Shown here one piece after another: positions 29,255 to 49,569 of a stretch of DNA of 64,000 bases. The stretch lies in the IMG/VR virus record IMGVR_UViG_3300034062_004993, one strand, 5' to 3'. This DNA comes from an uncultured virus (IMG/VR IMGVR_UViG_3300034062_004993) (taxonomy: Duplodnaviria; Heunggongvirae; Uroviricota; Caudoviricetes). The number at the start of each line of letters is the position of its first letter. The first letter of the stretch is position 1. The notes under the pieces were generated by a model. That model made no database searches. It saw only the letters and a program-made list of their open reading frames with translations, and was not told the DNA's origin. Made by a program: the position numbers and the translations under genes.

Positions 29255-29282
29255 TTTATACTCCTATTATTAATATAAATAT

Positions 29283-30044: not shown

Positions 30045-31685
30045 TTAAGCACCACCAATAGTTTCCAATCCGTTCACATATACTTTACCATAGAACTCAC
30101 CTCTGACCATTTCTTTGGCGTAGCGAGTCATTACACCCTTACGAGGAGTAAAGTTTTTGTAATCGTACACAAGAGGCGTCATAATCAATGGAATGTATGG
30201 AGCGTAAACAGCACCAGTTTCCAAGAATTGTGTTCCTCTGTAACCCATCAAAATCAAGTTTTCTTGCATATATGGGTTCTTATAAACCTGATATCTTTGT
30301 GCGAAAGAACCTACTTTGGTCATACCAAATGCAAATTGTCTTTCATCACCAGTTCCATCAGCAGTGTATCCTGGAATTGATTCCAAAATAGTAGCAACAT
30401 CAGGAGAACATACTAAGAAGTTTGCACCACCACGCATTGTCTTAGCGTGAATTTGGTTAGAAACTCTCTGCAATACAGTTCCCAAAGTTGCGAACCAAGT
30501 ACCCTGAATGTAAGCTGCTACATTAGTAGTGTTCGCATTTGTGAATGTAGTTCCATTCCATTCCTGTCCGATTTTTGCAGACCAGTAACCTGTAGTCAAT
30601 GCGTTCTGAATCAACATGTCCAAAATCTCAAAATCAATCTCTTGTGATACATATTCAGATAACATTGAAGTTAATTCTGCTTCTGCATCAATAGAGTGAT
30701 ATGCGTTCAAGTCCTGCGCAAATTCAGGTGTCCATTGTGCTTTCAACTTACGAGTTTTAGCAACAATTGGAACTGAACGCATTTCGATGTTCAATTCTGG
30801 GATTTCCAAATCCGTTTCAGGATTTGCTGCCATTTGTGTTTTTGATACCTCAAAATCACCACGAGTTACATCAGTTGGTTGTTTTTGGTATCTGATAGTA
30901 GCCGCTGTGGCGCCTGTTGCACTTGTAACTTTACAAACGAAAGCAATTTGAGTATCGGTTGAGTTTACAGTTGTAAATTGTGGGTAAAATGTTTCAATGT
31001 TAGTACCACTAATTGTAAACGCACGAACACCTTCCAAATCAGGACGAGTAAACGAACCTGTACTGAATGTTAATTTTTGGAAAACACCACCAGCCGTTGA
31101 AGCAGACCATGCGGTATCATAGTTAAAATCAGCAGCTGAAATAGAAGCTGTTACCATAGCTGTGTCTGTAGGAGCCGCAGCTTTTGTAGAAATTGCTGAT
31201 GTAGCATCATCGTTGATAGTGTAACCAAAACGACCAGCGCCATACAAACCACCTGAGGCTTGGTTGGCTGTTTCGGTAATACCAAATACTGAGTCGGCTT
31301 GTGAATTTTTACCAGAACCGGTTGTAAAACCAGGCTGACCTGTTCCATACTTAAAATCTAAATAGAAAATAAGACCGGATGGGAGATTCATAGGTTGAAC
31401 TGAAACAAACTCTTTCGCAGCGATTTCAGAGAAAATACGGCGAACAAGCGGAAGGGCTACGCCATTCCACTCTTCAGAGTTGTTGAACATTGATGTGGCA
31501 GAAGCTTCAGTTACTAACTGCTTTGCCTGATTTTCCAAAAGTTGAGCCATGTTGTTGATTTCGGTCTCATTGGTAATTTCATCTAAAAGACCGGTTTTTT
31601 TCCACTTGGCTACTAAACCTTTGGCTTCTTTACGAAGAACTCTTTCGAATCCTGCGCTTTCTTTTAAAATGCTATTTATATTCAT
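30045..31685 (-). CDS. Major capsid protein (T4 gp23-like)
   Basis: LPLVRR, VSVQPMNLPSGLIF, AKTRKLKAQWTPEFAQDL, YAPYIPL, GVMTRYA. Confidence 0.98.
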   Translation of the reverse strand: MNINSILKESAGFERVLRKEAKGLVAKWKKTGLLDEITNETEINNMAQLLENQAKQLVTEASATSMFNNSEEWNGVALPLVRRIFSEIAAKEFVSVQPMNLPSGLIFYLDFKYGTGQPGFTTGSGKNSQADSVFGITETANQASGGLYGAGRFGYTINDDATSAISTKAAAPTDTAMVTASISAADFNYDTAWSASTAGGVFQKLTFSTGSFTRPDLEGVRAFTISGTNIETFYPQFTTVNSTDTQIAFVCKVTSATGATAATIRYQKQPTDVTRGDFEVSKTQMAANPETDLEIPELNIEMRSVPIVAKTRKLKAQWTPEFAQDLNAYHSIDAEAELTSMLSEYVSQEIDFEILDMLIQNALTTGYWSAKIGQEWNGTTFTNANTTNVAAYIQGTWFATLGTVLQRVSNQIHAKTMRGGANFLVCSPDVATILESIPGYTADGTGDERQFAFGMTKVGSFAQRYQVYKNPYMQENLILMGYRGTQFLETGAVYAPYIPLIMTPLVYDYKNFTPRKGVMTRYAKEMVRGEFYGKVYVNGLETIGGA

Positions 31686-31716: not shown

Positions 31717-32808
31717 TTATTTTTTGATGTTAGCAAGCTTTTGGAATCTTGTAGCCAACGAAGAACCTTCGGTTATGATACCAGCAGGTTTTGTTCCTTT
31801 GGTTGGTTTAGATGCAAATGATTCTCTAACAAATCTTTTTTGTGATTTTTTAGCAACATTAAGGTTTTCACCCAATGTAGCAAACACTAATTTTACTTCT
31901 CTCAAAGATGAAGCACGGTCAAAGTTTTCTACAACTTTAACTTTTTGCTTTTCATTCAAATCAAAGTTTCTGAAAAGTTTGTTTGTGTAAAGTAGTTTTG
32001 CATTCAAAAGGTTTACTTCGTTAATGGTGTTCTTTAACGATTTAATTACTTTATATGCTTCTTCCAAATCACTCTTCATTTCTTCAGCCTCTTCTTCAGT
32101 CATTCCACCCTCTTCTTCATCTGCTGGCTCTTCACCATTCATTTCTCTAAGGGCCCTAATAACTTCATTCAAATCAACTTCTTCATCGCCACCTTCTTCT
32201 TCAAAGAACTCACCAGTTCCTTGTTCATCTTCGGTTTCAGAATCGTAGTTAGCAACTTTATTATCACCTGCGCCAATTTCAGATGACTCTAATTCTTGTA
32301 ATCTTTTTGATACTCTTTCACGAATTTTTTTCAATTCTGTGATTTCTGGGTTTTCTTCTTCAGCGGGCTCTCCTCCCATTTCACCTTCTAATTCTCTGAT
32401 AATTGATTCTAAGTCTAAATCACCCATTTCATCATCATCATCTTCTTCAGCAGGTTCTTTGGTTTCAAATTCACCACCCATTTCATCTTCTTCTTCAACA
32501 GGCTCGTCGGTTTCAAATTCACCACCCATTTCATCTTCTTCTTCAACAGGCTCGTCGGTTTGAAATTCACCACCCATTTCATCTTCTTCACCCATATACT
32601 CATCGGTTGTTGCAAACTCTTCTTCTTCCCCCATTGGAACTTCTTCATCTTCTAACTCTTCAGCAATTTTGTGAGACAACATTGATTGGAGTCTTGGAGT
32701 GAATGCTTCCTCAAGGGCGATTTTTGCATTTGCTAATGCTGTTTCTTTAACGGCTTTAGCATCGGCGATTGCTTCTTTAAGCAAATCTTTATTGCCTTTA
32801 TTTTTCAT
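31717..32808 (-). CDS. Prohead scaffold / core protein (gp22-like role)
   Basis: Very acidic, coiled-coil, directly upstream of the MCP; ends RFQKLANIKK. Confidence 0.8.
   Translation of the reverse strand: MKNKGNKDLLKEAIADAKAVKETALANAKIALEEAFTPRLQSMLSHKIAEELEDEEVPMGEEEEFATTDEYMGEEDEMGGEFQTDEPVEEEDEMGGEFETDEPVEEEDEMGGEFETKEPAEEDDDDEMGDLDLESIIRELEGEMGGEPAEEENPEITELKKIRERVSKRLQELESSEIGAGDNKVANYDSETEDEQGTGEFFEEEGGDEEVDLNEVIRALREMNGEEPADEEEGGMTEEEAEEMKSDLEEAYKVIKSLKNTINEVNLLNAKLLYTNKLFRNFDLNEKQKVKVVENFDRASSLREVKLVFATLGENLNVAKKSQKRFVRESFASKPTKGTKPAGIITEGSSLATRFQKLANIKK
32461..32589. repeat. 48-bp tandem repeat (about 2.7 copies) encoding EEEDEMGGEFETDEPV
   Basis: Units start at 32461, 32509 and 32557 and are near-identical. 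Confidence 0.9.
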
Positions 32809-33550: not shown

Positions 33551-35317
33551 TTATTTTTTATGTGATTTAAATCCCTGTCCCTTCATCCACCAAGCCAATG
33601 CCCAAGGATTATCAATACCCGGTTCATCTTTCATCGCTTTTACTGTTTTTTTCCATCCTTCGGGTGCAACTTCGTTGGTTACTTGTTTATTTTCCACAAA
33701 TGGTTTAAAAGCCGAAATAACTTTATCTGCTGTCATTTTATCAAATTTGCTTTGCATTGCAACATCACCAACTTTGTATAATTTCAACAACTTTTCTGCT
33801 GTTTTCTTATCAACTTTTGTAGAACCAACGCGGGAAGTAGAACCATCTACTACACTCTTTAACAAGTCAGATAATTTTACATTTGCTTCATTTACTTTTT
33901 TTTTTAAAATAAGATTTGATAGTTTCATTTCACCAACAAAATCTTTTGCATTTTCTTTATCTTGCGGGTCTACATCGGTTACTTTATAAGTCTTACCACC
34001 AACAGTGAAAGTATCCTCACCTGCTGCAATTGCTCTTGCTCTTTCAGCACCAAATTCATTACCTTCATCCATTACGATTTCTGCATCACTCAATTTTCCT
34101 TTAACAAGACCACTTACAGTTTTAATTACAACTTCGTTACCTTTAACAGAATAAACCATTCCTGTCTTATTTTGTGATTTAAGATGGACGGTATCTCCAA
34201 ACTTTGGTTTTTTTACTTCCTTCACTAAATTTTGAAATTTCATCAATACAATTGCGTAATTACCCACTTTTCTTTCTGCACCAGCTGCGTATTTTTTATT
34301 TACAATTGCAATAGTGTTCCCAGATACTTTAATTATATACATTGGTATCATTTCAGTTGAGAAATCATATTTAATTCCTGCTTTTTTCAATTCAGAACCA
34401 ACGTTCATAAATGATGATGCGTTTTTAACTGCCGCTTCAATTTTATCTAAATCAGCATCGTATTTACCTTCGTTTACTGATTCTTTAATAACATTCTCCA
34501 TTAATCCAATTGCAATATCTTTAACTTCTCTTTCTGCACCAGCTGCATATTTTTTATTTACAATTGCAATAGTGTTTCCAGATACTTTAATTCTATACAT
34601 TGGTATCATTGAAGTTGAGAAATCATACTTTACACCAATTTTCTTTAATTCAGAACCAACGTTCATAAATGATGATGCGTTTTTAACTGCTGCTTCAATT
34701 TTATCTAAATCAGCATCATACTTACCTTCATTGATTGATTTTTTGTTTATTAATTGACTTAATTTCATGTTTTCTCCTACAAAATCTTTTGCATTTTCTT
34801 TATCTTCGGAATCTACATCCGTTACTTTAAATGTTTTATCACCAACTTGGAATGTATCTTCACCTGCTGCAATTGCTCTTGCTCTTTCAGCACCAAATTC
34901 ATTACCTTCTTTTATTTCGTAATATTTACCCAATATCTCACCAATTTCATCATAAGACGATTCCAACCTTTGCTGGAGAGTTGATACTTCTTTGATAGTG
35001 TTTGTAAAAATCTTAAAAGATTCGTTCATAGATTTCATATGACGAGAAACAGTTACCTTATCAAACCAATCACCAGTTTCTTGTAAAGTTAATTTATGAG
35101 CGGTTTCAACAATCTTTTTAATGTTTTGGTATGCTTCCATCAAATTACCATTATGGTAAATTGCCTCACCAATTTTTCGGTATGAAGCAACTGCCTCAAC
35201 AAAAGCCCTTTTTTCTTCATTGGTCATTTTTGTATCATCCAAATCTTCCTCACCAATGTTTAATCTACGATAATCCATATGCTGTGATTCTTTTAATAAG
35301 TTAAATAGTTTTTTCAT
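33551..35317 (-). CDS. Modular putative head-packaged polyprotein with internal duplications
   Basis: Two copies of an 86-aa module, two copies of the EGNEFGAERARAIAAGEDTF module, xNE linkers. Confidence 0.8.
   Translation of the reverse strand: MKKLFNLLKESQHMDYRRLNIGEEDLDDTKMTNEEKRAFVEAVASYRKIGEAIYHNGNLMEAYQNIKKIVETAHKLTLQETGDWFDKVTVSRHMKSMNESFKIFTNTIKEVSTLQQRLESSYDEIGEILGKYYEIKEGNEFGAERARAIAAGEDTFQVGDKTFKVTDVDSEDKENAKDFVGENMKLSQLINKKSINEGKYDADLDKIEAAVKNASSFMNVGSELKKIGVKYDFSTSMIPMYRIKVSGNTIAIVNKKYAAGAEREVKDIAIGLMENVIKESVNEGKYDADLDKIEAAVKNASSFMNVGSELKKAGIKYDFSTEMIPMYIIKVSGNTIAIVNKKYAAGAERKVGNYAIVLMKFQNLVKEVKKPKFGDTVHLKSQNKTGMVYSVKGNEVVIKTVSGLVKGKLSDAEIVMDEGNEFGAERARAIAAGEDTFTVGGKTYKVTDVDPQDKENAKDFVGEMKLSNLILKKKVNEANVKLSDLLKSVVDGSTSRVGSTKVDKKTAEKLLKLYKVGDVAMQSKFDKMTADKVISAFKPFVENKQVTNEVAPEGWKKTVKAMKDEPGIDNPWALAWWMKGQGFKSHKK
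34243..34730. repeat. 258-bp tandem duplication inside the 588-aa gene
   Basis: For example gtttttaactgc at 34421 and 34679; near-identical protein modules. Confidence 0.9.
34468..34486. repeat. Dispersed 19-nt word cttcgtttactgattcttt (encodes KESVNE on the minus strand), copy 1
   Basis: Identical copy at 35781-35799; one-mismatch copy at 45074-45092. Confidence 0.9.
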
Positions 35318-35331
35318 TTCATTTCCTTTTT

Positions 35332-36276
35332 TCAGTAAGAACCTGGTCTATTACCTTTTTTCATAGAAGTTGCCCAAATACCAATCATCTTTTTAATATC
35401 GGCGGGAATTTCTTTATCATAAATAGTTAGTTTACCATCTTTTCCTATATGGGCTATCGTTTCATAATCACCATCTTTTTCTTCTGCCCTATTCCAAATA
35501 GTTAAACCATTACCCAAATATCCAGACCCAATATCGTATTTTTTAGCTTCGTTTAGTAATTTTTCCGAATATACAGTCATACCGGTGTTGTCCTCAATTG
35601 TAAATATATAACCCGGTATATTTGTAACCTTTTTCATATGTTCAAACTTTGCAGGAATTTCATTTTTTGTTTTTACCTGTGTTTGATAATACACTTTTTT
35701 ATTAAACGATACTACAATAGTCCAAGGACCTGTTTGAGAACCCTTTTTAATACCGGCCATCATTTTTGCTGAATTAGTAGCTTCGTTTACTGATTCTTTG
35801 ATATATTTCATAGAAGAGTTTGAACCATCGGTAAAGAATACATTATCACCATCAATCATTTTTACTTTTCTTTTGAATGGGCCTTTTTTACCTAAAGCTG
35901 CTTCCCAATGTGGATTATCAACAACTTTAACCATTTGACCAACTTTGATTTCTTTTTTTACTGATTCTTGAAGCTTTTTAATTAGCTTATTTTGAATTGG
36001 ATTATTCGGTTTTCCAGACACCGCAGTCACAAAATCCATTCTGTCTGAAAGTTTTCCCTTCTTAACAAATTGGAAAACTTTTTCGATATCCAAATTGTGA
36101 GTATCAACAAACTTTTGAACTGCATCTTTATTTAAACCGGTAAGTCCACCAATTTCCATTGCGGTTCTCGAAGCGGACTCTAATTTTAAGCTTTTTTGTG
36201 TGTTTTGAACTGCCACCAAATTCATTTCTTTTTTTGCAATCTCTCTAATCATTTTTTTGAGTTGTTCTAATTTCAT
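35332..36276 (-). CDS. Modular putative head-packaged protein
   Basis: Likely start MKLEQLKKMIRE (ATG 36276); modules separated by LKLE, QESVKKE, KESVNE and LLNE. Confidence 0.75.
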   Translation of the reverse strand: MKLEQLKKMIREIAKKEMNLVAVQNTQKSLKLESASRTAMEIGGLTGLNKDAVQKFVDTHNLDIEKVFQFVKKGKLSDRMDFVTAVSGKPNNPIQNKLIKKLQESVKKEIKVGQMVKVVDNPHWEAALGKKGPFKRKVKMIDGDNVFFTDGSNSSMKYIKESVNEATNSAKMMAGIKKGSQTGPWTIVVSFNKKVYYQTQVKTKNEIPAKFEHMKKVTNIPGYIFTIEDNTGMTVYSEKLLNEAKKYDIGSGYLGNGLTIWNRAEEKDGDYETIAHIGKDGKLTIYDKEIPADIKKMIGIWATSMKKGNRPGSY

Positions 36277-36911
36277 TTTGTTTCCCAATTTTTAGGACAT
36301 TCGCAATATCCACCAATTTCACAAATAATATCTCGCATTATACTATTAGCAGTTTCATATTTATTCACTTTTGAACCCCTACTAACACCCTCATTAACGG
36401 GTTTCATAAAAGCCCCATGAGTAGATGGGTTACTTACAAAATCCCAACAAATTAAATCAAAATCGTTTTCTACAGCAACAGTACCATCTTCTCTAATTTG
36501 ACGAACTGAACCCATACCCCGTGAAGATATTCCTACCGTACAACCTGCTTCTATCAATTCTTTAAGTATTCTGCCCGATGGGGTATTTAGTATTTCTACT
36601 TTACCAACAACATCTTTACCATTCCACCATACATCTCTAATAATATGTGAAGTATTTTTTAATTCCACAACCGATGATTCTGGGTGGTCTAACTCACCAT
36701 ATGCACGATTTTCTGTTATCTCTCTACCCTTATATTTATCAACCTCACGCTTCAAAATATTTTCGGGATATATTCTACCATTTTGGTTTTTTTCATTTGC
36801 CCTTTGAAGAACACCAGTTACAATTAATCTACCATTACCATTCATAGCAGCTTCTTTAAGCTGTTGTGGTTTTACATCAAATACAATAGTATCAATTAAT
36901 AGTTGTTTCAT
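36273..36911 (-). CDS. Prohead core protease (T4 gp21-like)
   Basis: NQNGRIYP, GELDHP, GISSRGMGS, DFVSNPS; ATG at 36911. Confidence 0.97.
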   Translation of the reverse strand: MKQLLIDTIVFDVKPQQLKEAAMNGNGRLIVTGVLQRANEKNQNGRIYPENILKREVDKYKGREITENRAYGELDHPESSVVELKNTSHIIRDVWWNGKDVVGKVEILNTPSGRILKELIEAGCTVGISSRGMGSVRQIREDGTVAVENDFDLICWDFVSNPSTHGAFMKPVNEGVSRGSKVNKYETANSIMRDIICEIGGYCECPKNWETK

Positions 36912-36912
36912 A

Positions 36913-37440
36913 TCAGGCACCCAATTGTCTTATTTTACTTGAAATTCGGTTTAATCGCTCTGATATTTTAGAAAAATTGTTTCTTGTTTTTTTCCAATAA
37001 GCACCAGATGAAATACCCATTTCTGTCTTTAGTTTTATATTTTGATTCACTAAGTGTTCAACCTCATATATCTTTCTATTAATTTCTTTAATAGCCTTAT
37101 TAATTTTATATTGTGGGGAACCTGTTTCATCTTTTCGGTATTGACGATAGTTCATTTCATTGATGACATCCTCAATCTTTTTTTCCCAATTTTCTAAAAA
37201 ATTTCTTTTTACATTTTTTACTTTTTTATACCCCAACACCTCAATATGGTCATTATCCATATCTCCTTTACTTTTCGCAAAAGCATGTGGAGTTCGTGGT
37301 GGACCAGCACCGCCATCCAAATTACCGGTAACATTTTGTTCACCCAAATCCTCATCATCCTTTTCATCGGGATTGACGATTTCCTCTTCTTCTAATTGCT
37401 TAAATTTTTTATCAAGCTCTTCAATTAAAAACCTACTCAT
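36913..37440 (-). CDS. Hypothetical head-module protein
   Basis: Between portal and protease; NVTGNLDGGAGPPRTPHAF motif plus coiled coil. Confidence 0.7.
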   Translation of the reverse strand: MSRFLIEELDKKFKQLEEEEIVNPDEKDDEDLGEQNVTGNLDGGAGPPRTPHAFAKSKGDMDNDHIEVLGYKKVKNVKRNFLENWEKKIEDVINEMNYRQYRKDETGSPQYKINKAIKEINRKIYEVEHLVNQNIKLKTEMGISSGAYWKKTRNNFSKISERLNRISSKIRQLGA

Positions 37441-38279
37441 TATTGAACACCCTTTAATTCGTTTAACAATTGATAGTATCTTAAAAGTCCAAGTGCTTGA
37501 ACCTCCGATACGATTTTTGCGTTGGATAAATTATCAATCAACCCAATAACCTCTTTTAACTTAATGGAAGAAACTTTATCAGTAATTTTAAACTTTGAGA
37601 ATTCATTTTTAAGTTTTTTACTTTCCCTTAAAATAAATCTTTTTAAATTGCCTGAATTATCAATATTGTTAATATAATTTCTAAGAACCAATTTTTGTTC
37701 GCTGGTTAGTTCTTTATACTTATCATTAAATTTATCAACTAAAAACTTATAAGCCAATAACCTAACATCTTTTGATTCTTTACTATACAAATCAGTATTT
37801 TCTTCTTTTATAGGTTTTTTTGTTTTTGTTATATTTTCTAAAATTTGATTTTTACATTCAACCCATTCTTTTGGATATGTATTTTCTTGATTCTCAAATA
37901 GTTTATATATAGTGGCAAGTGATTTATAGTTATTTACCCTATACTTAAAAAAATCTTTAGCATCAAACTTTTCATTTATTGATTTAATAAGATTATATTT
38001 TTCTTTTTTTAAATTGGTTTCATTTAATTTTTTTCTTTCAACCAAAATAATATTAAGAAACTCACTTGCTTTGTATGTATTATCAAAATTTTCTTTGACA
38101 AGATATTGATACATTTTAAGTTCTTTACTTAATTCACTACCCTGCTTAAAATGCTTTTTAATTATAGATAATCCTATTGAATTTTTTTCATTCAAAGTAT
38201 CAGATGCAATCTGCCTAACAAGAAGTTCAAATAAAACCCCAGTGTTTTTAAATTTAGAATGCTTTAATTTAGTGTTCAT
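37440..38279 (-). CDS. Hypothetical head-module protein
   Basis: KHSKFKNTGVLFELLVRQI start; helical; directly downstream of portal. Confidence 0.75.
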   Translation of the reverse strand: MNTKLKHSKFKNTGVLFELLVRQIASDTLNEKNSIGLSIIKKHFKQGSELSKELKMYQYLVKENFDNTYKASEFLNIILVERKKLNETNLKKEKYNLIKSINEKFDAKDFFKYRVNNYKSLATIYKLFENQENTYPKEWVECKNQILENITKTKKPIKEENTDLYSKESKDVRLLAYKFLVDKFNDKYKELTSEQKLVLRNYINNIDNSGNLKRFILRESKKLKNEFSKFKITDKVSSIKLKEVIGLIDNLSNAKIVSEVQALGLLRYYQLLNELKGVQ

Positions 38280-38324
38280 TTATAATTATCCTATCTTATC
38301 AATAAATAAATATACAAAATTTAA

Positions 38325-40226
38325 TTAAACATCGTTATTTAATATGTTTCTTTCATCCAACATATCAAATTTTTGGTTTTTTTCATCGGTATCTGTCAAC
38401 AATGACTCAACTATAATTTTTTTAGTTTTTATTTTTGAATTTTGTAAGCTTGTTTTTAACTGCATCCCTTCAACAGAAAGTGGTGATTTCCTAAATGTAT
38501 GGTATGCTTTTTCAGGTTTTATATCCGTTTCATATCCCATTGCGTTTCTTCCAAAAGAACTATCATCAGTTCCAGCAATACTACCCTCTTCCGGTCTACC
38601 AGCCCCTTCAAATCCACCAGGAGGTGAACCACCTTCATTATCACCAGAAGCAGGTTGCCCTCCCGCTTCTGCCGATTGTTGTGATAATGCTGCCAAATCA
38701 TGCGGAGTTCCAAACGATTCACCAGTCTTAATTGGGTCATTACCCTCAGTTTCAATTTGGGACTGTCTAAATCCTAATTTCAAATCGTTAATAACTTTAA
38801 CCTGTTCTGCTTTCCACTCATCATCGGACATGTTAAATATATTTTTATATACCCATTCTTGTGAAAGTAGTTTTGATGTTTTTATATCCGATGCCAATCG
38901 CACATTTTCAATCCAAAGAGCAACCTTTTCTTGCTGATAAATTATTGATGGTGGTGTTAATTCTAAATAGAAGTTAGATAAGGCCTCATTTTCGTATCCC
39001 TGTGCATACAAATGTATGATTGCTATTTTTGTCAATTCGGATAAAACAATTTTTTGTACCCGCTCAATACTCCTAGCAAAACGAATATCTTGTTGAGCAA
39101 GCGTCGCTTTACCCTCTACACCCTCTTCATAACCAATAAATGCTTTTGGAACTTTAAGAGCGGCCTGCATTCGGTTTTTAAGATAATTTATATCCTCAAT
39201 ACCAGTGAATTCCATTCCACCCAAAGTATCAATTTGAGTACCACTTTGACCACCTCTTACGGGTAAATAATAATCTTCTAACATATTTTGTATGTTAAAT
39301 TTAAGATTATAATCACCAGTAGCTTCATCTACATAAGGAACTTTTTTCATTTGGTCTATAATGTTCCTAACATGCTGGTCTACTTCATTTGGTGGTATGT
39401 TACCAACATCAATTTTAAATACCCTTTTTTCAGGAGCACGCATAATACGATGAATTAACATCGCATCTTCCATAAGGGTTAATTGTTTCCAAGTTTTTCT
39501 AGCAGGTTCTAATAAGGAACGACCATAAGGTAAAAAGTTTGTGTCTGAAAATAACCTAAAATGGGCTATTTTATAAAATGGAATATAATTTTGTATATCG
39601 TTGCTAGATTTTTGATAATTAAATCCGGTAGCACCACCACCCATCGTTGTCATTTTAAATCTAACTTCATATGGGTTATCGGAATTAAACCCCTCTTCTC
39701 TTTCAATTTCATATGCTGATATTGGTGATACATTTACAATACCAATACCCTCTTCAATATCTAAGTTAAGATAGTAATCGCCATATTTATTCATCCCTCT
39801 AATCCACGCCCAAAGATTAAATTCTATATTAAGGACATCATAAAAAAGATTTTGTAATATTTTTTTAATATTTTCATCATCCGAATTAATCCTCAATACA
39901 TCCCCAAGATCGTTCTTGAGTGTGCATTCATCCGAGTAAATATCTAAAACGGATGCAATAATTGAATCTTTATCCATCGCCTCATAATCAGTATAAAGTT
40001 CTAACCGATTGGATGAATAATTGTATTGATTATTGTAAGTTTCCCAATTTTGACGAGATGAGTGTAATCTACCAAATCTATCGTAGTAGGAAGTTCCTTT
40101 TATATTACCCTGCGATTGTAATCGTTGTGTATCAATAGCCCTAGTTTTACCCTTACCAATTCTTCTTACTACAACCTGAGTTGAAAAGAGTTTTTGTAAT
40201 CTACCGAATAAAGATTTATCTGCCAT
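38325..40226 (-). CDS. Portal protein (T4 gp20-like)
   Basis: YGRSLLE, LMEDAMLIHRIMRAPEKRVFKIDVGN, EDYYLPVRG, QDIRFAR. Confidence 0.97.
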   Translation of the reverse strand: MADKSLFGRLQKLFSTQVVVRRIGKGKTRAIDTQRLQSQGNIKGTSYYDRFGRLHSSRQNWETYNNQYNYSSNRLELYTDYEAMDKDSIIASVLDIYSDECTLKNDLGDVLRINSDDENIKKILQNLFYDVLNIEFNLWAWIRGMNKYGDYYLNLDIEEGIGIVNVSPISAYEIEREEGFNSDNPYEVRFKMTTMGGGATGFNYQKSSNDIQNYIPFYKIAHFRLFSDTNFLPYGRSLLEPARKTWKQLTLMEDAMLIHRIMRAPEKRVFKIDVGNIPPNEVDQHVRNIIDQMKKVPYVDEATGDYNLKFNIQNMLEDYYLPVRGGQSGTQIDTLGGMEFTGIEDINYLKNRMQAALKVPKAFIGYEEGVEGKATLAQQDIRFARSIERVQKIVLSELTKIAIIHLYAQGYENEALSNFYLELTPPSIIYQQEKVALWIENVRLASDIKTSKLLSQEWVYKNIFNMSDDEWKAEQVKVINDLKLGFRQSQIETEGNDPIKTGESFGTPHDLAALSQQSAEAGGQPASGDNEGGSPPGGFEGAGRPEEGSIAGTDDSSFGRNAMGYETDIKPEKAYHTFRKSPLSVEGMQLKTSLQNSKIKTKKIIVESLLTDTDEKNQKFDMLDERNILNNDV

Positions 40227-40245
40227 AAGTATAAATATAATTTTT

Positions 40246-41829
40246 TTAAAATAACCAACCTAAATCAACATCATTACCACGAATATCTTTCATAATATAT
40301 GGATTTTGGCCTGAGTTTTTACTTGAGAATACCGTTATTTGATTTCCAGATACACGGGTGATACTACTTAAAGCATTTCTTGTTAAGTTCATACCTTGCT
40401 GTCTTAACTTCAATGCGGTATCTCTAACCCAAAGACCTGTAGAAAATGATATAACCAAATCATCATTATATCCCCTTTGTGCCTCTGCTTTTGACCCATT
40501 CCATATAAAAACAAATAACTCATCCAACAATCGTTTAGAGTGAATTATTGGTGATTTTTCTCTCATATAAGTATCTAATTTAGATACTATTAAAGGCCTC
40601 GTTTTTTGTGTCATTGAAAATCCTGGCACCATATCTTCTTTTTGCTTTAAATCCCATCCCCTCCTTAAATGAATATCTTCATCTATATATCCCAACTCCC
40701 TATACGAATAGTAAAGATTTCCATAATTACGGTCAATTACTTCCTGAATAACAGCCCATCCAATATTTGCATTTTCAATCACCAAAAGGGCGTTGTTCCA
40801 TTCTGCTGCTACCGATGATAAGAAAGCACCATATTGTTTTGTTTCTATTTTACCTTTGTATTCCGCCACCTGCTCTAACTGCTCAACATCAATCACATGA
40901 AAAGCAGAATAATCTGCTCCATCTCCCCTTGCAACATCCGCCACAACTATATAATCTTTTGAATAGTTAGGATAATCCCATATCCAATAATTTGCATCAA
41001 ATCCACGCTTCTCAATAGGTTCTGTTACATGCGTTTCTTTATACCACTCCAATACAGAACCATCAACGACTGTGTAACCTGATGAAATAAAATCAGTATC
41101 ACATTCTTGAGCAGCACCCTTTTCCCCCAATAATCTTGTTTGTTCATCTCTCCATCTTTGATTTCTTTCGGGGTGAACCGTCCAGTGTAATCTCGTTGGA
41201 TGCCATTTATCACCAGCTTCTCCCTGCTGCCAAACTTTATGGAAAAAATTACCAACCCCATTTGGTGTTGAAAGAACTATTGCACCACCACCAGTTGAAA
41301 GTGTGGATTGTGCAGATAACCAAATCTCTTCAATACCTTTGATAAATGCGGCCTCATCTATAATCAATAAAGAAAGTGCTTCAGAACGTCCTGCGGTTTC
41401 AGTCGCAGAAACTGCTTTGATTTGAGAACCATTTTTTAATCGAAGTGATAATTTATTATCTTCAGCAGCACCCACCTTTAACCAACTTGGTAGATTATCA
41501 TACATAAATCTAACCTTTGTAACCAAGTTTTTTGCTACATCTTGCGTTGTTGCAATTACAAGAACATTCTTATCTCTATGAAATATCATCAACCAAGTTG
41601 CGTATCCAGCTGAAATAGTTGATATACCTAATTGGCGGGATTTTAGAATAACATTAAATCGGTGGGTTTTAAAAGAATCAATTAAATCTTCTTGGAAATC
41701 ATATAGGTTAAATAATATTTTTCCCCTATGCGGGTGCTGTATGTAACAATATTTTTTAAAAAAATATATTGGGTCTTTCGCACACTTTACATACTCTTCT
41801 GATATTAATTCTTTTAAAGTTTTCGGCAT
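40246..41829 (-). CDS. terL: Terminase large subunit (T4 gp17-like)
   Basis: KSRQLGIST, IIDEAAF, STPNG, ADVARG, DYSAF, NDDLV. Confidence 0.97.
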   Translation of the reverse strand: MPKTLKELISEEYVKCAKDPIYFFKKYCYIQHPHRGKILFNLYDFQEDLIDSFKTHRFNVILKSRQLGISTISAGYATWLMIFHRDKNVLVIATTQDVAKNLVTKVRFMYDNLPSWLKVGAAEDNKLSLRLKNGSQIKAVSATETAGRSEALSLLIIDEAAFIKGIEEIWLSAQSTLSTGGGAIVLSTPNGVGNFFHKVWQQGEAGDKWHPTRLHWTVHPERNQRWRDEQTRLLGEKGAAQECDTDFISSGYTVVDGSVLEWYKETHVTEPIEKRGFDANYWIWDYPNYSKDYIVVADVARGDGADYSAFHVIDVEQLEQVAEYKGKIETKQYGAFLSSVAAEWNNALLVIENANIGWAVIQEVIDRNYGNLYYSYRELGYIDEDIHLRRGWDLKQKEDMVPGFSMTQKTRPLIVSKLDTYMREKSPIIHSKRLLDELFVFIWNGSKAEAQRGYNDDLVISFSTGLWVRDTALKLRQQGMNLTRNALSSITRVSGNQITVFSSKNSGQNPYIMKDIRGNDVDLGWLF

Positions 41830-41838
41830 TGGTTTTTA

Positions 41839-42441
41839 TTATTTACTTATTTTCCAATAAACTTTTCCTGTAAAGTTTGGTACTAAATTATTATCAAAAC
41901 CAATTCCAAGTGCATATGCTTTTTTCTTTTTTGTTTTTAATAATAATTCACCATTTAAAACCATAAAATTTTTATTTGCGGTAATACCTGTTCCCAAATA
42001 AACTTCTCTTTTATTTACTAAAATCGTATTTGTTACAATTTTTGTGGGTATTAAAATATTTGAAATATGCTGCCGTGCTTCAATTTGATTTTTTGAAATA
42101 GTATCTTTCATCACAATATAACCAAATGTATCCACAGCAATTGTATCTTCGTAATAATATTTTGCGTAGTAATCTCTCAAAAGAGACATAGTATCTATTG
42201 GTTCATTTTGATTAATAAAAATACTATCTATATCAACTACAACTTTATCTTTCCATTCTGGGGCATAAACCTCCGATTCAGTATTAATAGTATCGTATTT
42301 ATACTCTATCGTTGTTACTGTATCAATTATGGGTTCGTTATTGAAAATATTCTTAACAAAACCCATAGGTAATTTATCCCTAAGTAAAAATAGGGCGATT
42401 AACAATATTATTACAGATATAATAATTTTAGACAGTTTCAT
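41839..42441 (-). CDS. Membrane-anchored or secreted hypothetical protein
   Basis: N-terminal hydrophobic helix IIISVIILLIALFLL; beta-strand-like C-terminus. Confidence 0.7.
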   Translation of the reverse strand: MKLSKIIISVIILLIALFLLRDKLPMGFVKNIFNNEPIIDTVTTIEYKYDTINTESEVYAPEWKDKVVVDIDSIFINQNEPIDTMSLLRDYYAKYYYEDTIAVDTFGYIVMKDTISKNQIEARQHISNILIPTKIVTNTILVNKREVYLGTGITANKNFMVLNGELLLKTKKKKAYALGIGFDNNLVPNFTGKVYWKISK

Positions 42442-42685
42442 TATTTTTTTTCTGCTTTTTTTGTCTTGATTTATAATTATTTCTTCTTTTTGGTTTTGGT
42501 TTTACTTCTTCTGTTTTCACTTCTGGTGATAATTGACCCACAGATGCTTTTGCAGATGTAAGTGGTTTGATTTGTGTTTTTAATGGTTCTATCTTTACAA
42601 TTTCTAATGTTTCAGGTAAATTTATTATTTTTTTACCCATAAAAAATCGATCGAACGAACTCAATAACTTTTTTAAAATGCTCAT
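42428..42685 (-). CDS. Basic hypothetical protein
   Basis: ORF track; AGGAGG SD and TATTTAT upstream. Confidence 0.65.
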   Translation of the reverse strand: MSILKKLLSSFDRFFMGKKIINLPETLEIVKIEPLKTQIKPLTSAKASVGQLSPEVKTEEVKPKPKRRNNYKSRQKKQKKNNETV

Positions 42686-42726
42686 AACTTTTCCTCCTAT
42701 TATTATAAATACTGATTTTAATTTTA

Positions 42727-43662
42727 TTAAACTAATTTTGATATAAGTTCATTTGCTTTACCTATTAACAAATCATTATATGAACTGTTTGTTATTATTG
42801 GTAGAGCTGCTATTATATCTTTTTTGGATTGAATATACATTTTTGATTTTGGGCTGTTTTCAAACTTTTTTGCGCCCCAAAGATGATAGATTGATTTATT
42901 TAATAACTCCTGTGCTTCTTCGGGTTCACCATCTAAATTAAAAGAATAAAACGATTTATTGGTGTATATAACTGGAACTAATGCTTTTGTTTTTACGTTC
43001 TTAACCCCCTTTGATAATGCGGCTAAAAACCATTGCTCCAATGTAATTTGAGCGGAAGATGCGGCATACATCTTTTTTTTCTCATCTGTCATATTTTTTA
43101 TTTCACCACTCGCACCCAATACAAATTTAAAATACTTAGAAACATATTCTTTTTTAAATTTCTCATTTTTCATACCAACTACCGCACAATTCATTGGAAA
43201 AGAATCTATAAATAGTTGTTTAAGTTTTTCATCCCATCTCCAACTAGATGAATGTTCAATATCTAATGGATTCCCATATGTGAATGGTGATTCTCTATGT
43301 AAATACAATAAATCACAATCATCCATTTCTTTTTTTAGGTTTTTATATAATACCAAATCAGTATCATAAATAACAAAAGGCGCTTTTAATTTAGACATAG
43401 CCCATATTTTAGGGGATGCCCAAAAATTATTAGAAATCATTTCATATGGATAATCATCAAAATAATGGGTAATAACTTTATCGTATAATGGGGTTATATT
43501 CCAATTATCATAAAATTCTTTTGATTTTTTATCGGTAATTAAATAAAGTGGTGTATTTGAATTGTAAATTTTGTGTACTATACACGAATACATTTGAACC
43601 AATAACTCAAAACTTCCAGGCGGTCTATCATCGTTGACCAAAAATACATGATACGCATTCAT
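42727..43662 (-). CDS. Putative glycosyltransferase-like protein (GT-A type DxD; DUF6734-like)
   Basis: FWASPKI, PFVIYDTDL, MNCAVVG, LEQWFL and YHLWG motifs. Confidence 0.55.
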   Translation of the reverse strand: MNAYHVFLVNDDRPPGSFELLVQMYSCIVHKIYNSNTPLYLITDKKSKEFYDNWNITPLYDKVITHYFDDYPYEMISNNFWASPKIWAMSKLKAPFVIYDTDLVLYKNLKKEMDDCDLLYLHRESPFTYGNPLDIEHSSSWRWDEKLKQLFIDSFPMNCAVVGMKNEKFKKEYVSKYFKFVLGASGEIKNMTDEKKKMYAASSAQITLEQWFLAALSKGVKNVKTKALVPVIYTNKSFYSFNLDGEPEEAQELLNKSIYHLWGAKKFENSPKSKMYIQSKKDIIAALPIITNSSYNDLLIGKANELISKLV

Positions 43663-43699
43663 CGAAACTTATTTAGTATAAATATGGATTAAAAAGTAA

Positions 43700-43969
43700 T
43701 TAATCCAATTCTTTTATCATTACTTTTAATGGTGTTTTTCCCTTTAGTATCCTATGATATGTTTCTTTTTGTATGGTAAATACATCCCCAACTTTAAGTT
43801 CTATTGGTAGTTTATTATCAGATTGAAAATACCAACCTTTTCCATCAACTACTTCAACCAATCTTGTTTTTTTATCTCTATGCCATACTAATTCTGAATT
43901 ATCTACATCCGTATCAAAAGACCGGTAGATAATACTTTTAGATTTGGTTTCTGCGTATGGTTTACTCAT
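43700..43969 (-). CDS. Small cupin-fold protein
   Basis: ELVWHRD, GWYFQ and YHRILKG motifs. Confidence 0.65.
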   Translation of the reverse strand: MSKPYAETKSKSIIYRSFDTDVDNSELVWHRDKKTRLVEVVDGKGWYFQSDNKLPIELKVGDVFTIQKETYHRILKGKTPLKVMIKELD

Positions 43970-43970
43970 T

Positions 43971-45728
43971 TTACCAATATGAATTTATATCCTCACCACC
44001 ACCGATTTTAGACCAATGGCGGGGTAAATTACAACTCCAATAACCTGGTGTAGTTTTATCTTTCTTATCAGGACAATTGTGCCTGTCTGAAAATGCTTTT
44101 CTTGCTTCTGGGTTATTTATTTTTGCAGTTAACCCACCCTTTACATCGCCGAAAGTTACTTTTCTAATATTATCACTTTCTGGGTCTTTTACATAAACTA
44201 CATATTTTTTACCTTCACCTGAATTTCTTTTGGGTGAATTTAATTCTACTTCTTGTCCCTGATATTCTGCTTCGGTTAAAATTGGAAAATCTAAAAGAAC
44301 TTTTTTTCCCTCATAAATACCAACCTTACCTAAATCGGAATCTAAAAACCATTCATCGCTTTCATTCATTGGTATAAATTCACCCTTTTTCCAAAGAGTT
44401 CTACATTCATTTACCAACTTAAAGAATTTGGGAGAACCATACCTGTAAATATTTTCTGATATTGGTTTTTTGTTTTTTATGTGATATTGAAGCCCCTCAC
44501 TCAAGTTTTTTTTTACTTCACCCAACGGATTACCATTTACATTTAATTCACCATTTAGGTAATGTTTCGCATTTACCATTAGAGTTTTTGCACTAACAAT
44601 ATCAGATTGCCACCAATGTGGAAAATCAATCTCTTCTTCCGCATTATCAAATTGCCCTAATAATTCATATAATTCTTTTGCATATTTTGCGATACGAAAA
44701 AGGTCTGCTTTTAACATATTTGGTTCATCGTCTTGATGTCCTACATCTATATCCTCTGTCAAACTTTTTAACTTCTTTAACTTTGTTGTTAAATCAGCCA
44801 TATCTTTCAAATGGGCTTTTTGCGCAGGGGTTCTATCACCCTGTGGAATTTTTGTAAACTCCACCGTTTTTTTGGCGTTATCTTTTAATTTTTTTTGGAT
44901 TGATAACATCTCCTTTTTTTGTTTTTCAGTACCCTTTCCCACTTTTTTAACTGAAGAAACCGATGGTTCATCATCATCAACTTCATTTATAACAGGGTAT
45001 TTCTTACCACCAAATTCAAACTCTTTCAATCCTTCTTTTCTTGCTTTAAAAAGTGCCCCAGTAAAAGCATTTCCCTCGTTTACTGATTCTTTTTTCATTT
45101 TTCTTTTTTGTAGAACTAATTGTTGAATTTGTGAAAATATGGATTGTATATCCTTATCTAATTGTTTTTCATCTGCGCTCATTGGTGATTCAATATCTAC
45201 ATTGGAGTAAAGTTTTTTCTTTTTTGCAATTAATACATCCACCTTTTTAATTAAATCATTTTTTACTTTATCCAAATCTTTTATTATATCTTCGGTAGTA
45301 TTTTCTTTTATTACCCCCTCCCGCCTATTCAACAACTTAAACGCAATGGTCTGCATTTTCATAAGTCCTGCGTTTACAAATTGGTCCCTATTCTCCTGTT
45401 TCTTCAATTGGTCATAAACGGATATGATAGCGGATGCTGAGTATGAATCTACTTTCATCTGCTTTCCGGTCTTAGGGTCTTTAACTGATTTATAACCTGA
45501 CCTCATAACATCTCTTAGTTGAGTTATTACCGGCGGTTCATTCTTTGCTTCATTTACTACCCCTTCTTCGGTTTTCCAACCCCCACCAGCTGCTTTGTAT
45601 TGTTTTGCTGCCCAGGCATTGGCGTAGGCACTTGGATATACGTCAAACTTTTTTTTTGCCTGCGATTTATAGTAAGACCATTTTGAAGGGTCGGTTGGAA
45701 CATTCTTTTCTACCAATTGTTTTTTCAT
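43971..45728 (-). CDS. Modular putative head-packaged polyprotein
   Basis: Likely start MKKQLVE. Modules include FDVYPSAYANAW, DVGHQDDEP and a C-terminal RKAFSDRHNC...PGYWSC; linkers VVNE, IKE, KESVNE, VINE, LTE, LSE. Confidence 0.75.
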   Translation of the reverse strand: MKKQLVEKNVPTDPSKWSYYKSQAKKKFDVYPSAYANAWAAKQYKAAGGGWKTEEGVVNEAKNEPPVITQLRDVMRSGYKSVKDPKTGKQMKVDSYSASAIISVYDQLKKQENRDQFVNAGLMKMQTIAFKLLNRREGVIKENTTEDIIKDLDKVKNDLIKKVDVLIAKKKKLYSNVDIESPMSADEKQLDKDIQSIFSQIQQLVLQKRKMKKESVNEGNAFTGALFKARKEGLKEFEFGGKKYPVINEVDDDEPSVSSVKKVGKGTEKQKKEMLSIQKKLKDNAKKTVEFTKIPQGDRTPAQKAHLKDMADLTTKLKKLKSLTEDIDVGHQDDEPNMLKADLFRIAKYAKELYELLGQFDNAEEEIDFPHWWQSDIVSAKTLMVNAKHYLNGELNVNGNPLGEVKKNLSEGLQYHIKNKKPISENIYRYGSPKFFKLVNECRTLWKKGEFIPMNESDEWFLDSDLGKVGIYEGKKVLLDFPILTEAEYQGQEVELNSPKRNSGEGKKYVVYVKDPESDNIRKVTFGDVKGGLTAKINNPEARKAFSDRHNCPDKKDKTTPGYWSCNLPRHWSKIGGGEDINSYW

Positions 45729-45741
45729 AATTAACCTCAAA

Positions 45742-46236
45742 TTATGGTGTATAATTAGATATGTTCATTTTAACAAATGTTTCAATATCTTTTGGTGATA
45801 ATACCTGCTGCATTTCAAATCCAGAAAAAGCCCGCGTACCTAAAAATACAAATCCTTTTGCGGTTTCATAGTTCGCAGGAATATCATCATCAGTATTAAC
45901 AAATTCAGATGGTAAATAAGTTACCAAAGCGTTAAATACCGAATGGTGTGGCCCAATTTCCGGATTTGGTTTTACCGATATCGGTTGATTTCCTATCCTA
46001 AATTTTCTAATCATTAAACCATACCCCTTACCAGGATTTTGGTATCTTCTAAACCAATTATCTTTTTCTAAACGATAAACAGCAGTTTTTCCATCTACCT
46101 TTCTCATAAGAATCAATCTTATCATAGATTCGTTTGGTGGATCGGTTGGCATGTTTCTAAAATCTTTAACACTTGCTTCAGTTAAAACTGATTTTATTGA
46201 TTCTCTAATCAATTTTCTTAATTGGGATTGTTTCAT
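45742..46236 (-). CDS. Hypothetical protein with MKQSQLRKLIRE leader
   Basis: ORF track. Confidence 0.7.
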   Translation of the reverse strand: MKQSQLRKLIRESIKSVLTEASVKDFRNMPTDPPNESMIRLILMRKVDGKTAVYRLEKDNWFRRYQNPGKGYGLMIRKFRIGNQPISVKPNPEIGPHHSVFNALVTYLPSEFVNTDDDIPANYETAKGFVFLGTRAFSGFEMQQVLSPKDIETFVKMNISNYTP

Positions 46237-47168: not shown

Positions 47169-47190
47169 AACTTTTTATATAAATATATAA

Positions 47191-49536
47191 TTAATAGAAT
47201 AAACCTAAAATTTGATTAATCGGAGCGAAAACTCCAGTAAGTTTCAGAGTATTGCCTTTATATACAAAAACAATTCCTTCTTTTGGAACAATTTTATTTA
47301 CACCACCAATCGCTTCTAATCTTTCTAATTCCATTTTAAGCTTAGCAACTTTCTTAGGGTCTCCACCCGTTTTAACATCTTTAATAGTTTGGTCTAATCT
47401 CGTTTTAATACTACGAATTGCTTCATCGGGATTTACAGTTAGTACTGAACTCATAAATGATAATACCTCAGAACCAACACCCAAAAATATATCCTCAAAT
47501 GGTCGAATATTATCTTTTGATATTTTTTGGTGGTCGTTTTTATCCACACCCAATGCCCATTGTAATACTTTTTCCGATTTAATTGTTTTGTTACTTAATC
47601 CAAAACCTTTATTAAAGAATGCCCACCTTCTTATTAATCCGTCTTTTGTTTCTTTATCTAACTTTTCAGGTGAATTTTTTTCTATGTAATCATCCCACCA
47701 AGCCTGATGATACTCTGCCATACCATAGCTATCTTTTAACCCAAATTTAGATTGTAATTTTTGCAACATCCCCAAAAACTTTGGTTGTAATTGTTTTAAG
47801 CTTTCCTCTTTTGGTAATTGAGTAACGGGTGGTCCTTGTATGGTATATTTGTCTTGAACATGCTGATTTACTTGTTTAATCATCCCAGCTAATACGGTAG
47901 CATCAGATTGCTCTGCTCCAATTGCCACACCACTATCATCGTATTCAGTTGTGTTATGAAATACTAATAGAGCCTGACCATAAGGTATTACATTTACGGA
48001 GGTTGGATAAATAACCTCTAAGTTCATAAATTTCTTACCCTGCTTAAATATTTTGTCCCGTTGTGCTTTGGATAAACTACCCATTGCTTTTTCTAAATCT
48101 TTCATAGCAAAGTTGTAAGCATCAGTTAATCCACCTCTACCAGCAAATTTAGTAGCAACATCCTTTATGGACATTGCGTTTTCACCACTATTTGCTAAAT
48201 GCCCTTTATTTCTTGCAGCAATTAATCCCCTATCATCTCTCCAGCTAATAGCAAGTGCTTGGCCATCTGTTTTTTCTCGAGTCAGTTCAAGTTCACCATT
48301 TAGGGCTTTTGTTATTATGTTTTTTAAATCACCAAAAGTTAAATTTAATTCATTATCAAATGGATGATTCATATGACCGTATGCACCACCTTCGGTTAAA
48401 AAGTTGGAAAACCTTTTACCAATAGTTTCCAATAATTTATATTGTTTTTTATCTAATATTTCTAGTTTTTTACCAAGTACCCACTCAACAACCTCATAAC
48501 CCATTCCTCTATATACTTCTTTTAAATCAACATCTTCTAATCCAGTTATTTCAACCTCCGGCGCATTTTGGGTAGTATCTAACGGAGATGTTGCCAGGTC
48601 AGCAGTTAAATAATCTTCGGTTTCAGGAATATCCAACAAATCATCCATTGTGAATACCTTTCTCCTACTTACATATTGATAAAAATCACCAGTACCTTTT
48701 GCACTTTTTCTAACCATTACATCTGCTTTTGGAAAATGCATTTGGGTATATCCACCATTTACAAACCAATAATCATTTTTTTGTGCACCTTTTCCTAGTC
48801 CTAATATTCTTTCTTTATTATCTGGAACATAAATTGCATCAGGTTCTCCTGCATCCGCACCATATCCGCCACCTAATGTCGATTCAATTAGGGGAACTAT
48901 ATTATAATTTTGTAAAAAATTGGTTACTATTTCGTTTACACCACCCAACCTTTTAGAAATCATATTAAATATTTCCTGATTCCATTGTGGGTATGCTTTC
49001 TTAAAACCGGCTTTCTTTTGTGAATCGCTCCCCTTCGATAACCAATTACGAACATCAGTTCCACTTATTGGATTCTTTTGAGAAGGTGATACATACACAT
49101 ACCCATGGTCTTTATAACCAAATGCGGGTTTGAAACCATCGCCCGAATGAAATTTCTTAAAATACTTTCCACCAAGTCTTGCAGCGTCTTTCTCACCAAC
49201 AACAGTTACAAATGCGGTTGTTTCATCTGAAAACTTTTTTAGTATTTCCGTTGGATTATATGGATTTTTTACTTGAACAATTTTGTTGGGTGGAACACCA
49301 AACATTGTGGTCATTATTTTTTTCTTCTCCAAAAAATTGAAAGGGTCTTTTGGTCCACCACTTTTGTTGGATGTCCCAATGAATACATTTTCTTTACCGA
49401 ATTTTGATACTAAATGCGCATATGTTGCGTAATGCCCTTTATGAAATGGTTGAAATCTACCCGCGTAAACTACAACAGTCTTATTTACTTCTTCGGTTAA
49501 TACAGATTTAACCCATTCTTTTATTAAATTTCCCAT
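47191..49536 (-). CDS. HIGH-family (cytidylyltransferase-like) domain fused to a KxDG ligase-like domain
   Basis: GRFQPFHKGH and ISGTDVR in the N-terminal part; EGGAYGHMNHPFD, EKTDG and PKEGIVF in the C-terminal part. Confidence 0.75.
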   Translation of the reverse strand: MGNLIKEWVKSVLTEEVNKTVVVYAGRFQPFHKGHYATYAHLVSKFGKENVFIGTSNKSGGPKDPFNFLEKKKIMTTMFGVPPNKIVQVKNPYNPTEILKKFSDETTAFVTVVGEKDAARLGGKYFKKFHSGDGFKPAFGYKDHGYVYVSPSQKNPISGTDVRNWLSKGSDSQKKAGFKKAYPQWNQEIFNMISKRLGGVNEIVTNFLQNYNIVPLIESTLGGGYGADAGEPDAIYVPDNKERILGLGKGAQKNDYWFVNGGYTQMHFPKADVMVRKSAKGTGDFYQYVSRRKVFTMDDLLDIPETEDYLTADLATSPLDTTQNAPEVEITGLEDVDLKEVYRGMGYEVVEWVLGKKLEILDKKQYKLLETIGKRFSNFLTEGGAYGHMNHPFDNELNLTFGDLKNIITKALNGELELTREKTDGQALAISWRDDRGLIAARNKGHLANSGENAMSIKDVATKFAGRGGLTDAYNFAMKDLEKAMGSLSKAQRDKIFKQGKKFMNLEVIYPTSVNVIPYGQALLVFHNTTEYDDSGVAIGAEQSDATVLAGMIKQVNQHVQDKYTIQGPPVTQLPKEESLKQLQPKFLGMLQKLQSKFGLKDSYGMAEYHQAWWDDYIEKNSPEKLDKETKDGLIRRWAFFNKGFGLSNKTIKSEKVLQWALGVDKNDHQKISKDNIRPFEDIFLGVGSEVLSFMSSVLTVNPDEAIRSIKTRLDQTIKDVKTGGDPKKVAKLKMELERLEAIGGVNKIVPKEGIVFVYKGNTLKLTGVFAPINQILGLFY

Positions 49537-49569
49537 ATGAATATAAATATAAGATTATTGATTAATCAA

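Follow-up and report, generated by a model that had tools for sequence, protein, structure and literature searches.

Why should three genes of one phage, each a string of short segments, spell the linker between segments with the same word of 19 nucleotides (nt)? The question is raised by a window of 64,000 nt, the whole stretch of DNA analysed here, which is part of the IMG/VR virus record IMGVR_UViG_3300034062_004993 (161,618 bases, 33.5% G+C, completeness estimated at 84%, coding nearly all on the minus strand). The phage is T4-like, uncultured and from lake water, the sequencing runs that contain its DNA being from lake and fresh water (7 of these runs may themselves be its source). A first-pass annotation had read the genes as strings of short modules split by linkers of the KESVNE type, and this reading, coordinates and linkers included, is confirmed. 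We think it likely, at a probability of roughly two in three, that the three products, here called P1, P2 and P3, are polyproteins packaged in the head and cut into many small basic proteins, like the internal proteins of T4 but concatenated and shuffled in frame.

Comparison of sequences establishes the modular build. Together the three proteins, all encoded on the minus strand, comprise about 20 segments of 30-130 amino acids (aa) each, joined after [V/I/L]-x-E. P1 (588 aa; 33551..35317) has a short leader, a conserved acidic N-terminal domain and seven modules. The leader and N-terminal domain, a putative carrier (aa 1-137, 34907..35317, ending in EIKE), occur in 34 loci with a ratio of nonsynonymous to synonymous substitution rates (dN/dS) of 0.08; in Microcystis phage Mel-JY01 the domain stands alone (154 aa) directly after the protease. 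Next come a GNEFG module (aa 138-197, 34727..34906), ending in a leader-like MKL...KSINE linker, and two copies of a module named GKYD (aa 198-283, 34469..34726, and aa 284-367, 34217..34468, the second ending in LVKE), which is predicted to be a compact domain of two helices and five strands. A small SH3-like module follows (aa 368-418, 34064..34216, ending in VMDE; a weak MSSS SH3 match lies below cut-off), then a second GNEFG copy (aa 419-477, 33887..34063, ending in MKL...KKVNE) and two C-terminal modules (aa 478-549 and 550-588, 33554..33886), in whose place others stand in two relatives (L006, L007). Two internal duplications of P1, of 246 nt at 87% and 181 nt at 81%, both correspond to whole modules. 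P2 (314 aa from its ATG; 35332..36276) consists of a leader (aa 1-33) and modules at aa 34-109, 110-165, 166-243 (the ATNS module, 35548..35781) and 244-314. P3 (585 aa from its ATG; 43971..45728) has eight segments, the first weakly DUF5872-like and the last matching phrog_7595. The related module that had been noticed in two of the genes is the GNxFG module, present twice in P1 and once in P3. By inspection, 17 of the 21 leader and junction sites in the window fit [ILV]-x-E. A loose leader pattern is matched by P1, P2 and 62 of 98 N-termini (no null rate is attached to it).

The word itself recurs where it had been placed. The 19-mers stand at 34468..34486 in P1, 35781..35799 in P2 and 45074..45092 in P3, all on the minus strand and the third with one mismatch, and the 17-nt core is exact in all three (34470-34486, 35783-35799, 45076-45092). 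The genome-wide search proposed for the core returned these three exact copies and no further one in the 161.6-kb record. Allowing up to 3 mismatches, the window has five matches against 0.43 expected, and none of 100 shuffles reached five. A one-mismatch copy at 28519 lies on the opposite strand and out of frame and is taken as chance. The flanks had been called unrelated; this holds in part, P1 and P2 being alike over 26 nt (92%) around the common word. Of the window's roughly 18 internal junctions, just 3 have the word.

Can codon bias account for the identity, as the annotation had allowed? Given the codon use of this genome, three KESVN peptides would agree in every codon with a probability of 0.0009-0.0014. 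Among 74 loci, which were gathered by protease homology and hence were not selected for the word, a single 15-mer is used at 55 of 81 distinct ESVNE junctions, against 2.5 expected. After collapsing relatives to one per upstream family it is still used at 39 of 54, against a base rate of 3%, which rules out codon bias as the cause. The use of neighbouring codons (GTA before Asn 0.61, TCA before Val 0.23, AAC before Glu 0.31) hardly shifts the expectation. Conservation around the word is sharply limited to about 16 nt. Within homologous modules, 40-70% of synonymous sites are often different, so the linkers of unrelated junctions resemble each other more closely than do the interiors of related modules. 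A scan of viral contigs found the 19-mer in at least 126 loci, and in 138 of 138 matches the KESVNE frame is the longest open frame (the loci are partly redundant). Shared descent through recombination explains the identity of junction DNA, which is not a count of independent events.

Exchange of modules can be followed among close relatives. In phages whose protease is 96-99% identical, P2 varies from 223 to 527 aa and P1 from 418 to 664 aa. In one (L001), P1 is without both GKYD modules and one GKYD, the second of the window's copies, is located in the P2 gene; in another (L004), the ATNS module is in P1 and not in P2, in the same DNA (99%). By these sequence comparisons, modules move between the P1 and P2 genes. 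Breakpoints of module gain and loss were predicted to map to the linker, and they do. P1-P3 give 82 distinct internal alignment ends. Of these, 35 are positioned from -7 to +5 residues relative to a [VIL][NT]E, where 7.5 would be expected, and for [ILV]xE the number nearby is 59, against 22.1 expected. Taken as hotspots, 8 of 18 are near [VIL][NT]E (null 2.2, P 0.001) and 12 of 18 near [ILV]xE (P 0.002). Five control genes gave 1/86 ends near [VIL][NT]E (6.7 expected) and 9/86 near [ILV]xE (28.2 expected). A second breakpoint pattern, made after seeing the data (57/82), is not relied on. Partners vary: 15 of 18 upstream families seen more than once have at least two downstream partners, and 15 of 16 downstream families have at least two upstream partners.

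The joints at which swaps occurred share from 4 nt at the Glu codon up to about 19 nt. The linker had been proposed to double as an in-frame microhomology. Swapping at the linker is borne out, but a need for the full 19-mer is not: where near-identical phages are compared, several joints have no more than 4-9 nt in common around the Glu codon; the complete word therefore aids exchange but is dispensable. In two relatives (L009, L014) the P1 orthologue stops just past an internal leader-like stretch and the next module is a separate gene, which amounts to splitting at the linker region. Among contigs of four runs, a joint at 35551-35957 in one from an RNA run would remove two P2 modules; the evidence is weak, one side being 22 nt and such contigs showing neither expression nor strand. 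Relatives of the last module of P3 (43974-44270) occur in small, unrelated phages of Pelagibacter and Roseobacter and in a Nitrosopumilaceae spindle-shaped virus, so the exchange of modules extends beyond T4-like phages.

The GKYD module provides an independent view of the joints. A profile search found it in 325 protein clusters at 50% identity, and 148 proteins from the best 150 of these were analysed, two N-terminally cut ones being excluded and the window's P1 included. They hold 150 hits, 144 of them with upstream sequence. Among the matches listed, the residue before the module is Glu in 129/144 and the tripeptide is [ILV]xE in 125/144 (VNE 70, VTE 14, LTE 11, INE 9, ISE 6, others), in 118 upstream contexts that form 71 families. 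Of the 85 ends parsed from the same matches, 16 are C-terminal and have no linker, and 60 of the 69 internal ones have [ILV]xE within 14 aa. Because [ILV]xE precedes the module despite a varied middle residue, and the linker is absent at C-termini, selection acts on the peptide too. Several short proteins consist of one GKYD module directly behind a leader (some may be fragments). Modelled from a 19-row alignment, the module folds alone (mean predicted local distance difference test score, pLDDT, 88.9; predicted template modelling score 0.76). In a fold search the best matches were a uridylyltransferase (Z 5.4, root-mean-square deviation 2.5 over 63 residues) and a RelE-type chain (Z 5.1), both within the common range, and Foldseek gave no match to the model at E <=0.001.

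What would cut such linkers? The genes adjoin one for a prohead protease (36273..36911, minus strand), the predicted cutter. Its identity as a homologue of T4 gp21, already suggested, is borne out by Pfam (Peptidase_S77, PF03420, E 2e-32) and by alignment to PDB 5JBL (E 2e-18). In that alignment His and Ser are present where the 5JBL chain has Ala; we take these two residues to be catalytic. Similar sites in the major capsid protein (LVTE-A), the scaffold (IITE-G) and the protease (PVNE-G) are present as claimed. The capsid protein (Gp23; 30045..31685, minus strand), named from a family hit, conserves LV[S/T/K]E-A in 8/8 variants; aligned to T4 gp23, the site lies about 13 residues from the T4 cut and not exactly on it. 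In the scaffold, I[IL]TE-G is kept in 5/6 C-termini. In the protease's own PVNE site the Glu is kept and the residue two places before it varies in relatives. T4 gp21 cuts after L/I-X-E and removes a 10-residue targeting leader from internal proteins, and the T4 capsid targeting sequence packages foreign fusions (PMC9026906). The linker fits the rule deduced for the head protease from these sequences. Module interiors give further, modest support for cutting: 177 non-redundant ones contain 98 [ILV]xE, counting those whose x is neither N nor T, where 115 would be expected. The counterpart motif with Asp is in excess there (190 vs 156), and in 28 control proteins [ILV]xE itself exceeds expectation (156 vs 134).

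The catalogue of modules is large. In 166 open reading frames with ES[VI]NE there are 568 distinct segments in 275 families, an over-split upper figure, with some joints missed. Internal segments have a median length of 76 aa, and 199 of 315 have an isoelectric point (pI) above 9. For the window segments with usable pairs, dN/dS is <=0.4 in 18/20 and mostly 0.05-0.3; the pairs were limited to 65-95% identity, which may bias the ratio. On these ratios purifying selection acts on most modules. Leaders of the M[KR]L type inside the chains have [ILV]xE within 16 aa in 21/26 cases, against a background of 30%, and such leader-like MKL motifs before linkers suggest an origin by fusion of single-cargo genes.

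These results point to the following route. P1, P2 and P3 would be made late as head cargo. Loading through an N-terminal leader or carrier domain that binds the prohead core, cutting, retention in the head and ejection are steps that we infer: the gp21-type protease would cut after [V/I/L]-x-E in exposed linkers, releasing many folded, mostly basic proteins of 40-110 aa that would remain in the head and, by analogy with T4 IPI-III, probably enter the host with the DNA. The set of modules is altered by in-frame recombination at the linker, as comparison of relatives shows. Crossovers lie at or next to the Glu codon, and therefore each new join keeps both frame and cut site. Repeated exchange has probably spread the one 15-nt ESVNE spelling, which in turn supplies microhomology, and the arrays probably arose from fusion of single leader-plus-cargo genes. 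A bolder proposal is that these are intragenic cassette arrays in which 15-19 nt encode at once a recombination joint and a capsid-protease site, and from which aquatic T4-like phages put together, reshuffle and inject a kit chosen among hundreds of mutually unrelated mini-proteins, many of them defence inhibitors; it is tentative, and we would give it somewhat less than even odds. Its most speculative part is the anti-defence function, which might be expected from turnover and from analogy with T4 Ip1-3, each of which blocks a GmrSD variant (PMC12373910).

Several observations weigh against cleavage into small delivered proteins. Four of the 21 window sites (VMDE, VTNE, LKLE, VKKE) are outside [ILV]-x-E, an LVNE lies within a P3 module (aa 441), and the P3 leader is short and outside the leader pattern. 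Val dominates two places before the Glu, where the T4 motif has L/I (PMC9026906); Val there is justified by this phage's own capsid protein and protease sites only. The depletion of [ILV]xE inside modules is modest (z -1.75). Acidic segments (pI <6) make up 65/315 of the internal ones and could be degraded core filler. The P2 leader has a dN/dS of 6.2 (2 pairs) and one GKYD copy 0.93 (1 pair). Finally, the window's modules match no family or fold of known function, and Pfam matched only 8 of 150 scanned segments (of 252 representatives), 2 of them above cut-off (DUF3008 and cytidylyltransferase-like). As whole genes, P1-P3 had no Pfam hit above cut-off and no known function in PHROGs. A search of 45 polyproteins against Pfam and PHROGs gave only families of unknown function, a PDB sequence-profile search with two modules no family or fold of known function, and an ESM Atlas search no usable match, otherwise unnamed viral clusters. 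The single-sequence model of P2 was poor (pLDDT 49.6), so its fold search is uninformative.

How else could the arrays be explained? The pieces might be packaged and cut, yet serve as structural material with no specific host role, either lysine-rich proteins that neutralise DNA or fill the core, or peptides that are cleared like T4 gp22, gp67 and gp68. Lys does make up 15% of module interiors against 9% in controls, lysines of T4 internal proteins contact DNA phosphates (PMC3012670), and the P1 N-domain is acidic, conserved and set among core genes. We nevertheless judge this unlikely, because the diversity (275 segment families in 166 reading frames, over-split as that figure is), the fast turnover and the family-specific conservation exceed the needs of a generic counter-ion, and the one module tested, GKYD, is a compact predicted fold. 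That the proteins stay uncut, the linker being a flexible spacer and recombination joint that owes its resemblance to a gp21 site to leaders fused in the past, appears more improbable. It would suit the four window junctions without consensus, Melnitz gp18, which has the two terminal modules of P3 and no [VIL][NT]E joints, and the precedent of the N4 virion polymerase, an unprocessed polyvalent protein (PMC5512222). It would leave unexplained why Glu and the hydrophobic residue two before it persist amid variation of the codons and of the residue between them, why tandem sites are frequent in linkers and why the linker is absent at C-termini; moreover, any such protein within the prohead would meet the protease.

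Two further alternatives concern the exchange itself. The modules might be selfish elements, inserted in frame, whose spread relies on recombination at the word and which the phage tolerates as the head protease excises them, as the duplications within P1, an insertion into an enzyme-like gene and the occurrence of GKYD in very many contexts could suggest. Selfish inserts would hardly be mutually unrelated, devoid of a recognisable mobility function and, in most pairs of 65-95% identity, held at dN/dS of 0.05-0.3, and we regard this explanation as very unlikely indeed. A dedicated site-specific recombinase acting at the linker, integron-like, would account for the precision of joints at the Glu codon where as little as 4-5 nt is shared and for conservation sharply confined to 16 nt. 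Precise joints would, however, be expected from selection for frame and cut site by itself, and the sequence logo shows no inverted or accessory sites flanking the word. The record encodes a RecA/UvsX homologue; a tyrosine recombinase (integrase, PF00589) was not found in the 84%-complete record, other recombinase families lying outside the search. A dedicated enzyme seems improbable; the simplest driver is recombination of the general kind, carried out by the RecA homologue, with selection retaining products that keep frame and cut site.

Packaged and cut polyproteins would have partial precedents. T4's internal proteins (IPI, IPII, IPIII) and its Alt are small, basic, non-homologous cargo with a short leader ending in hydrophobic-x-Glu, cut by a gp21-type protease, and their set varies between related phages (PMC9026906, PMC3012670, PMC7411985). 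In T4, however, there is one gene and one leader per cargo, whereas here 4-8 modules share a chain and the predicted cut site is internal, repeated, prefers Val two places before the Glu and is also the point of DNA swapping; single-cargo forms exist in relatives of this phage. PHROGs scans of the genes and polyproteins surfaced no similarity to the T4 internal proteins, and the polyproteins are not strict members of that family. Older work on the variable ip1 locus of T-even phages reportedly may describe cassette exchange of single ip genes. Polyvalent proteins also place many unrelated domains on a chain in varied architectures, with delivery alongside the DNA proposed; they carry recognisable enzymes, often their own peptidase, and no fixed linker is mentioned in the parts of the source used (PMC5512222), while here the modules are tiny, the predicted cutter would act in trans and a fixed linker stands at the joints. 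The PeSL cassettes of RB49 and phi1, too, involve a repeated DNA element, which directs the recombination by which small reading frames are gained or lost (PMC2839356). Those elements are intergenic promoter-terminator units of about 100 bp in early regions, unlike the coding, in-frame word of 15-19 nt in late-type genes. In the heads of phiKZ and SPN3US a gp21-related protease cuts many head and ejection proteins after Glu at redundant sites (PMC5694885, PMC7411985). Those cuts take propeptides off one mature protein, and arrays of exchangeable modules are not mentioned in the portions of these papers drawn on. Freshwater phages with bS21 have that gene within a terminase-portal-protease-capsid cluster with hypothetical genes, where the protease and the downstream gene may be co-transcribed (PMC9723584). 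The main text of that paper contains 'polyprotein' and 'internal protein' 0 times. The literature search found no account of module arrays linked by protease sites in tailed phages, most subscription work being outside it, and nothing relevant on cultured carriers.

The surroundings of the arrays are those of a head cluster, in the order terminase, portal, two small genes, protease (36273-36911), P2, P1, a 106-aa gene, bS21, a scaffold-like gene and the major capsid protein; P3 is located upstream of the terminase. Protease, capsid protein and bS21 are named from family hits, and terminase, portal and scaffold from sequence and synteny with annotated phages. The bS21 gene (32943-33200) is on the same strand as its neighbours, unlike in the clades described from fresh water, where it is on the opposite strand (PMC9723584). 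The acidic scaffold-like protein (31717..32808, minus strand), recognised by position and composition, has several [ILV]xE sites and no Pfam or PHROGs match above cut-off; its gene contains 48-nt tandem repeats at 32435-32608, whose copy number differs among close relatives. A 175-aa gene (36913..37440, minus strand) has a C-terminal domain that ends other polyproteins after an xNE linker. Three small genes (45742-46236, 46241-46630, 33216-33536) have leader-like starts or xE sites and may be single-cargo members; modules shared with them were not found in the polyprotein set. An 8-nt motif, on the minus strand, is found ahead of many structural genes, at a distance of about 11-44 nt from their starts, and stands at the head of both the P1-P2 gene run and that of P3 (copies for example at 40230-40237, 47178-47185, 49542-49549, 29274-29281 and 27776-27783). 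Of its 29 coding-strand copies 19 are intergenic, the non-coding share of the genome being 14.5%. By its positions it is probably this phage's late promoter, and it corresponds to the reverse complement of T4's late promoter.

The cytidylyltransferase-like gene of 781 aa (47191..49536, minus strand) has a leader and xE joints. Its relatives carry inserted polyprotein modules, the 1010-aa version in one locus (L089) holding the module of P3 aa 143-218, and because the same modules are inserted there it is probably a fourth member of the set. In this gene, as in L089 (1568-4600) and L087 (772-4596), the cytidylyltransferase-like domain and a second conserved domain lie behind a leader; since relatives place shared modules between the two domains, an enzyme may be among the cargo. 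In Mel-JY01 (L201) the gene after bS21 (15615-16781), at a cargo-gene position, looks by eye like an ADP-ribosyltransferase, judged by its motifs, and is reminiscent of T4 Alt.

Anti-defence proteins of phages, being small and mutually unrelated, are difficult to search for. If the polyproteins are loaded and cut as predicted, the linker would show precisely where each of hundreds of mini-proteins delivered by virions begins and ends, in phages that are abundant in fresh water and the sea, and would be a sequence tag for mining injected effectors, making a direct screen possible. Flavobacterium phage immuto_2-6A, which has a similar head cluster and in whose 842-aa gp192 there are seven [VILM]NE sites and a module resembling one of P3's, offers a cultured test system. 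A tailed phage would then be seen to use a polyprotein strategy, with proteolysis and in-frame gene shuffling both served by a single short sequence.

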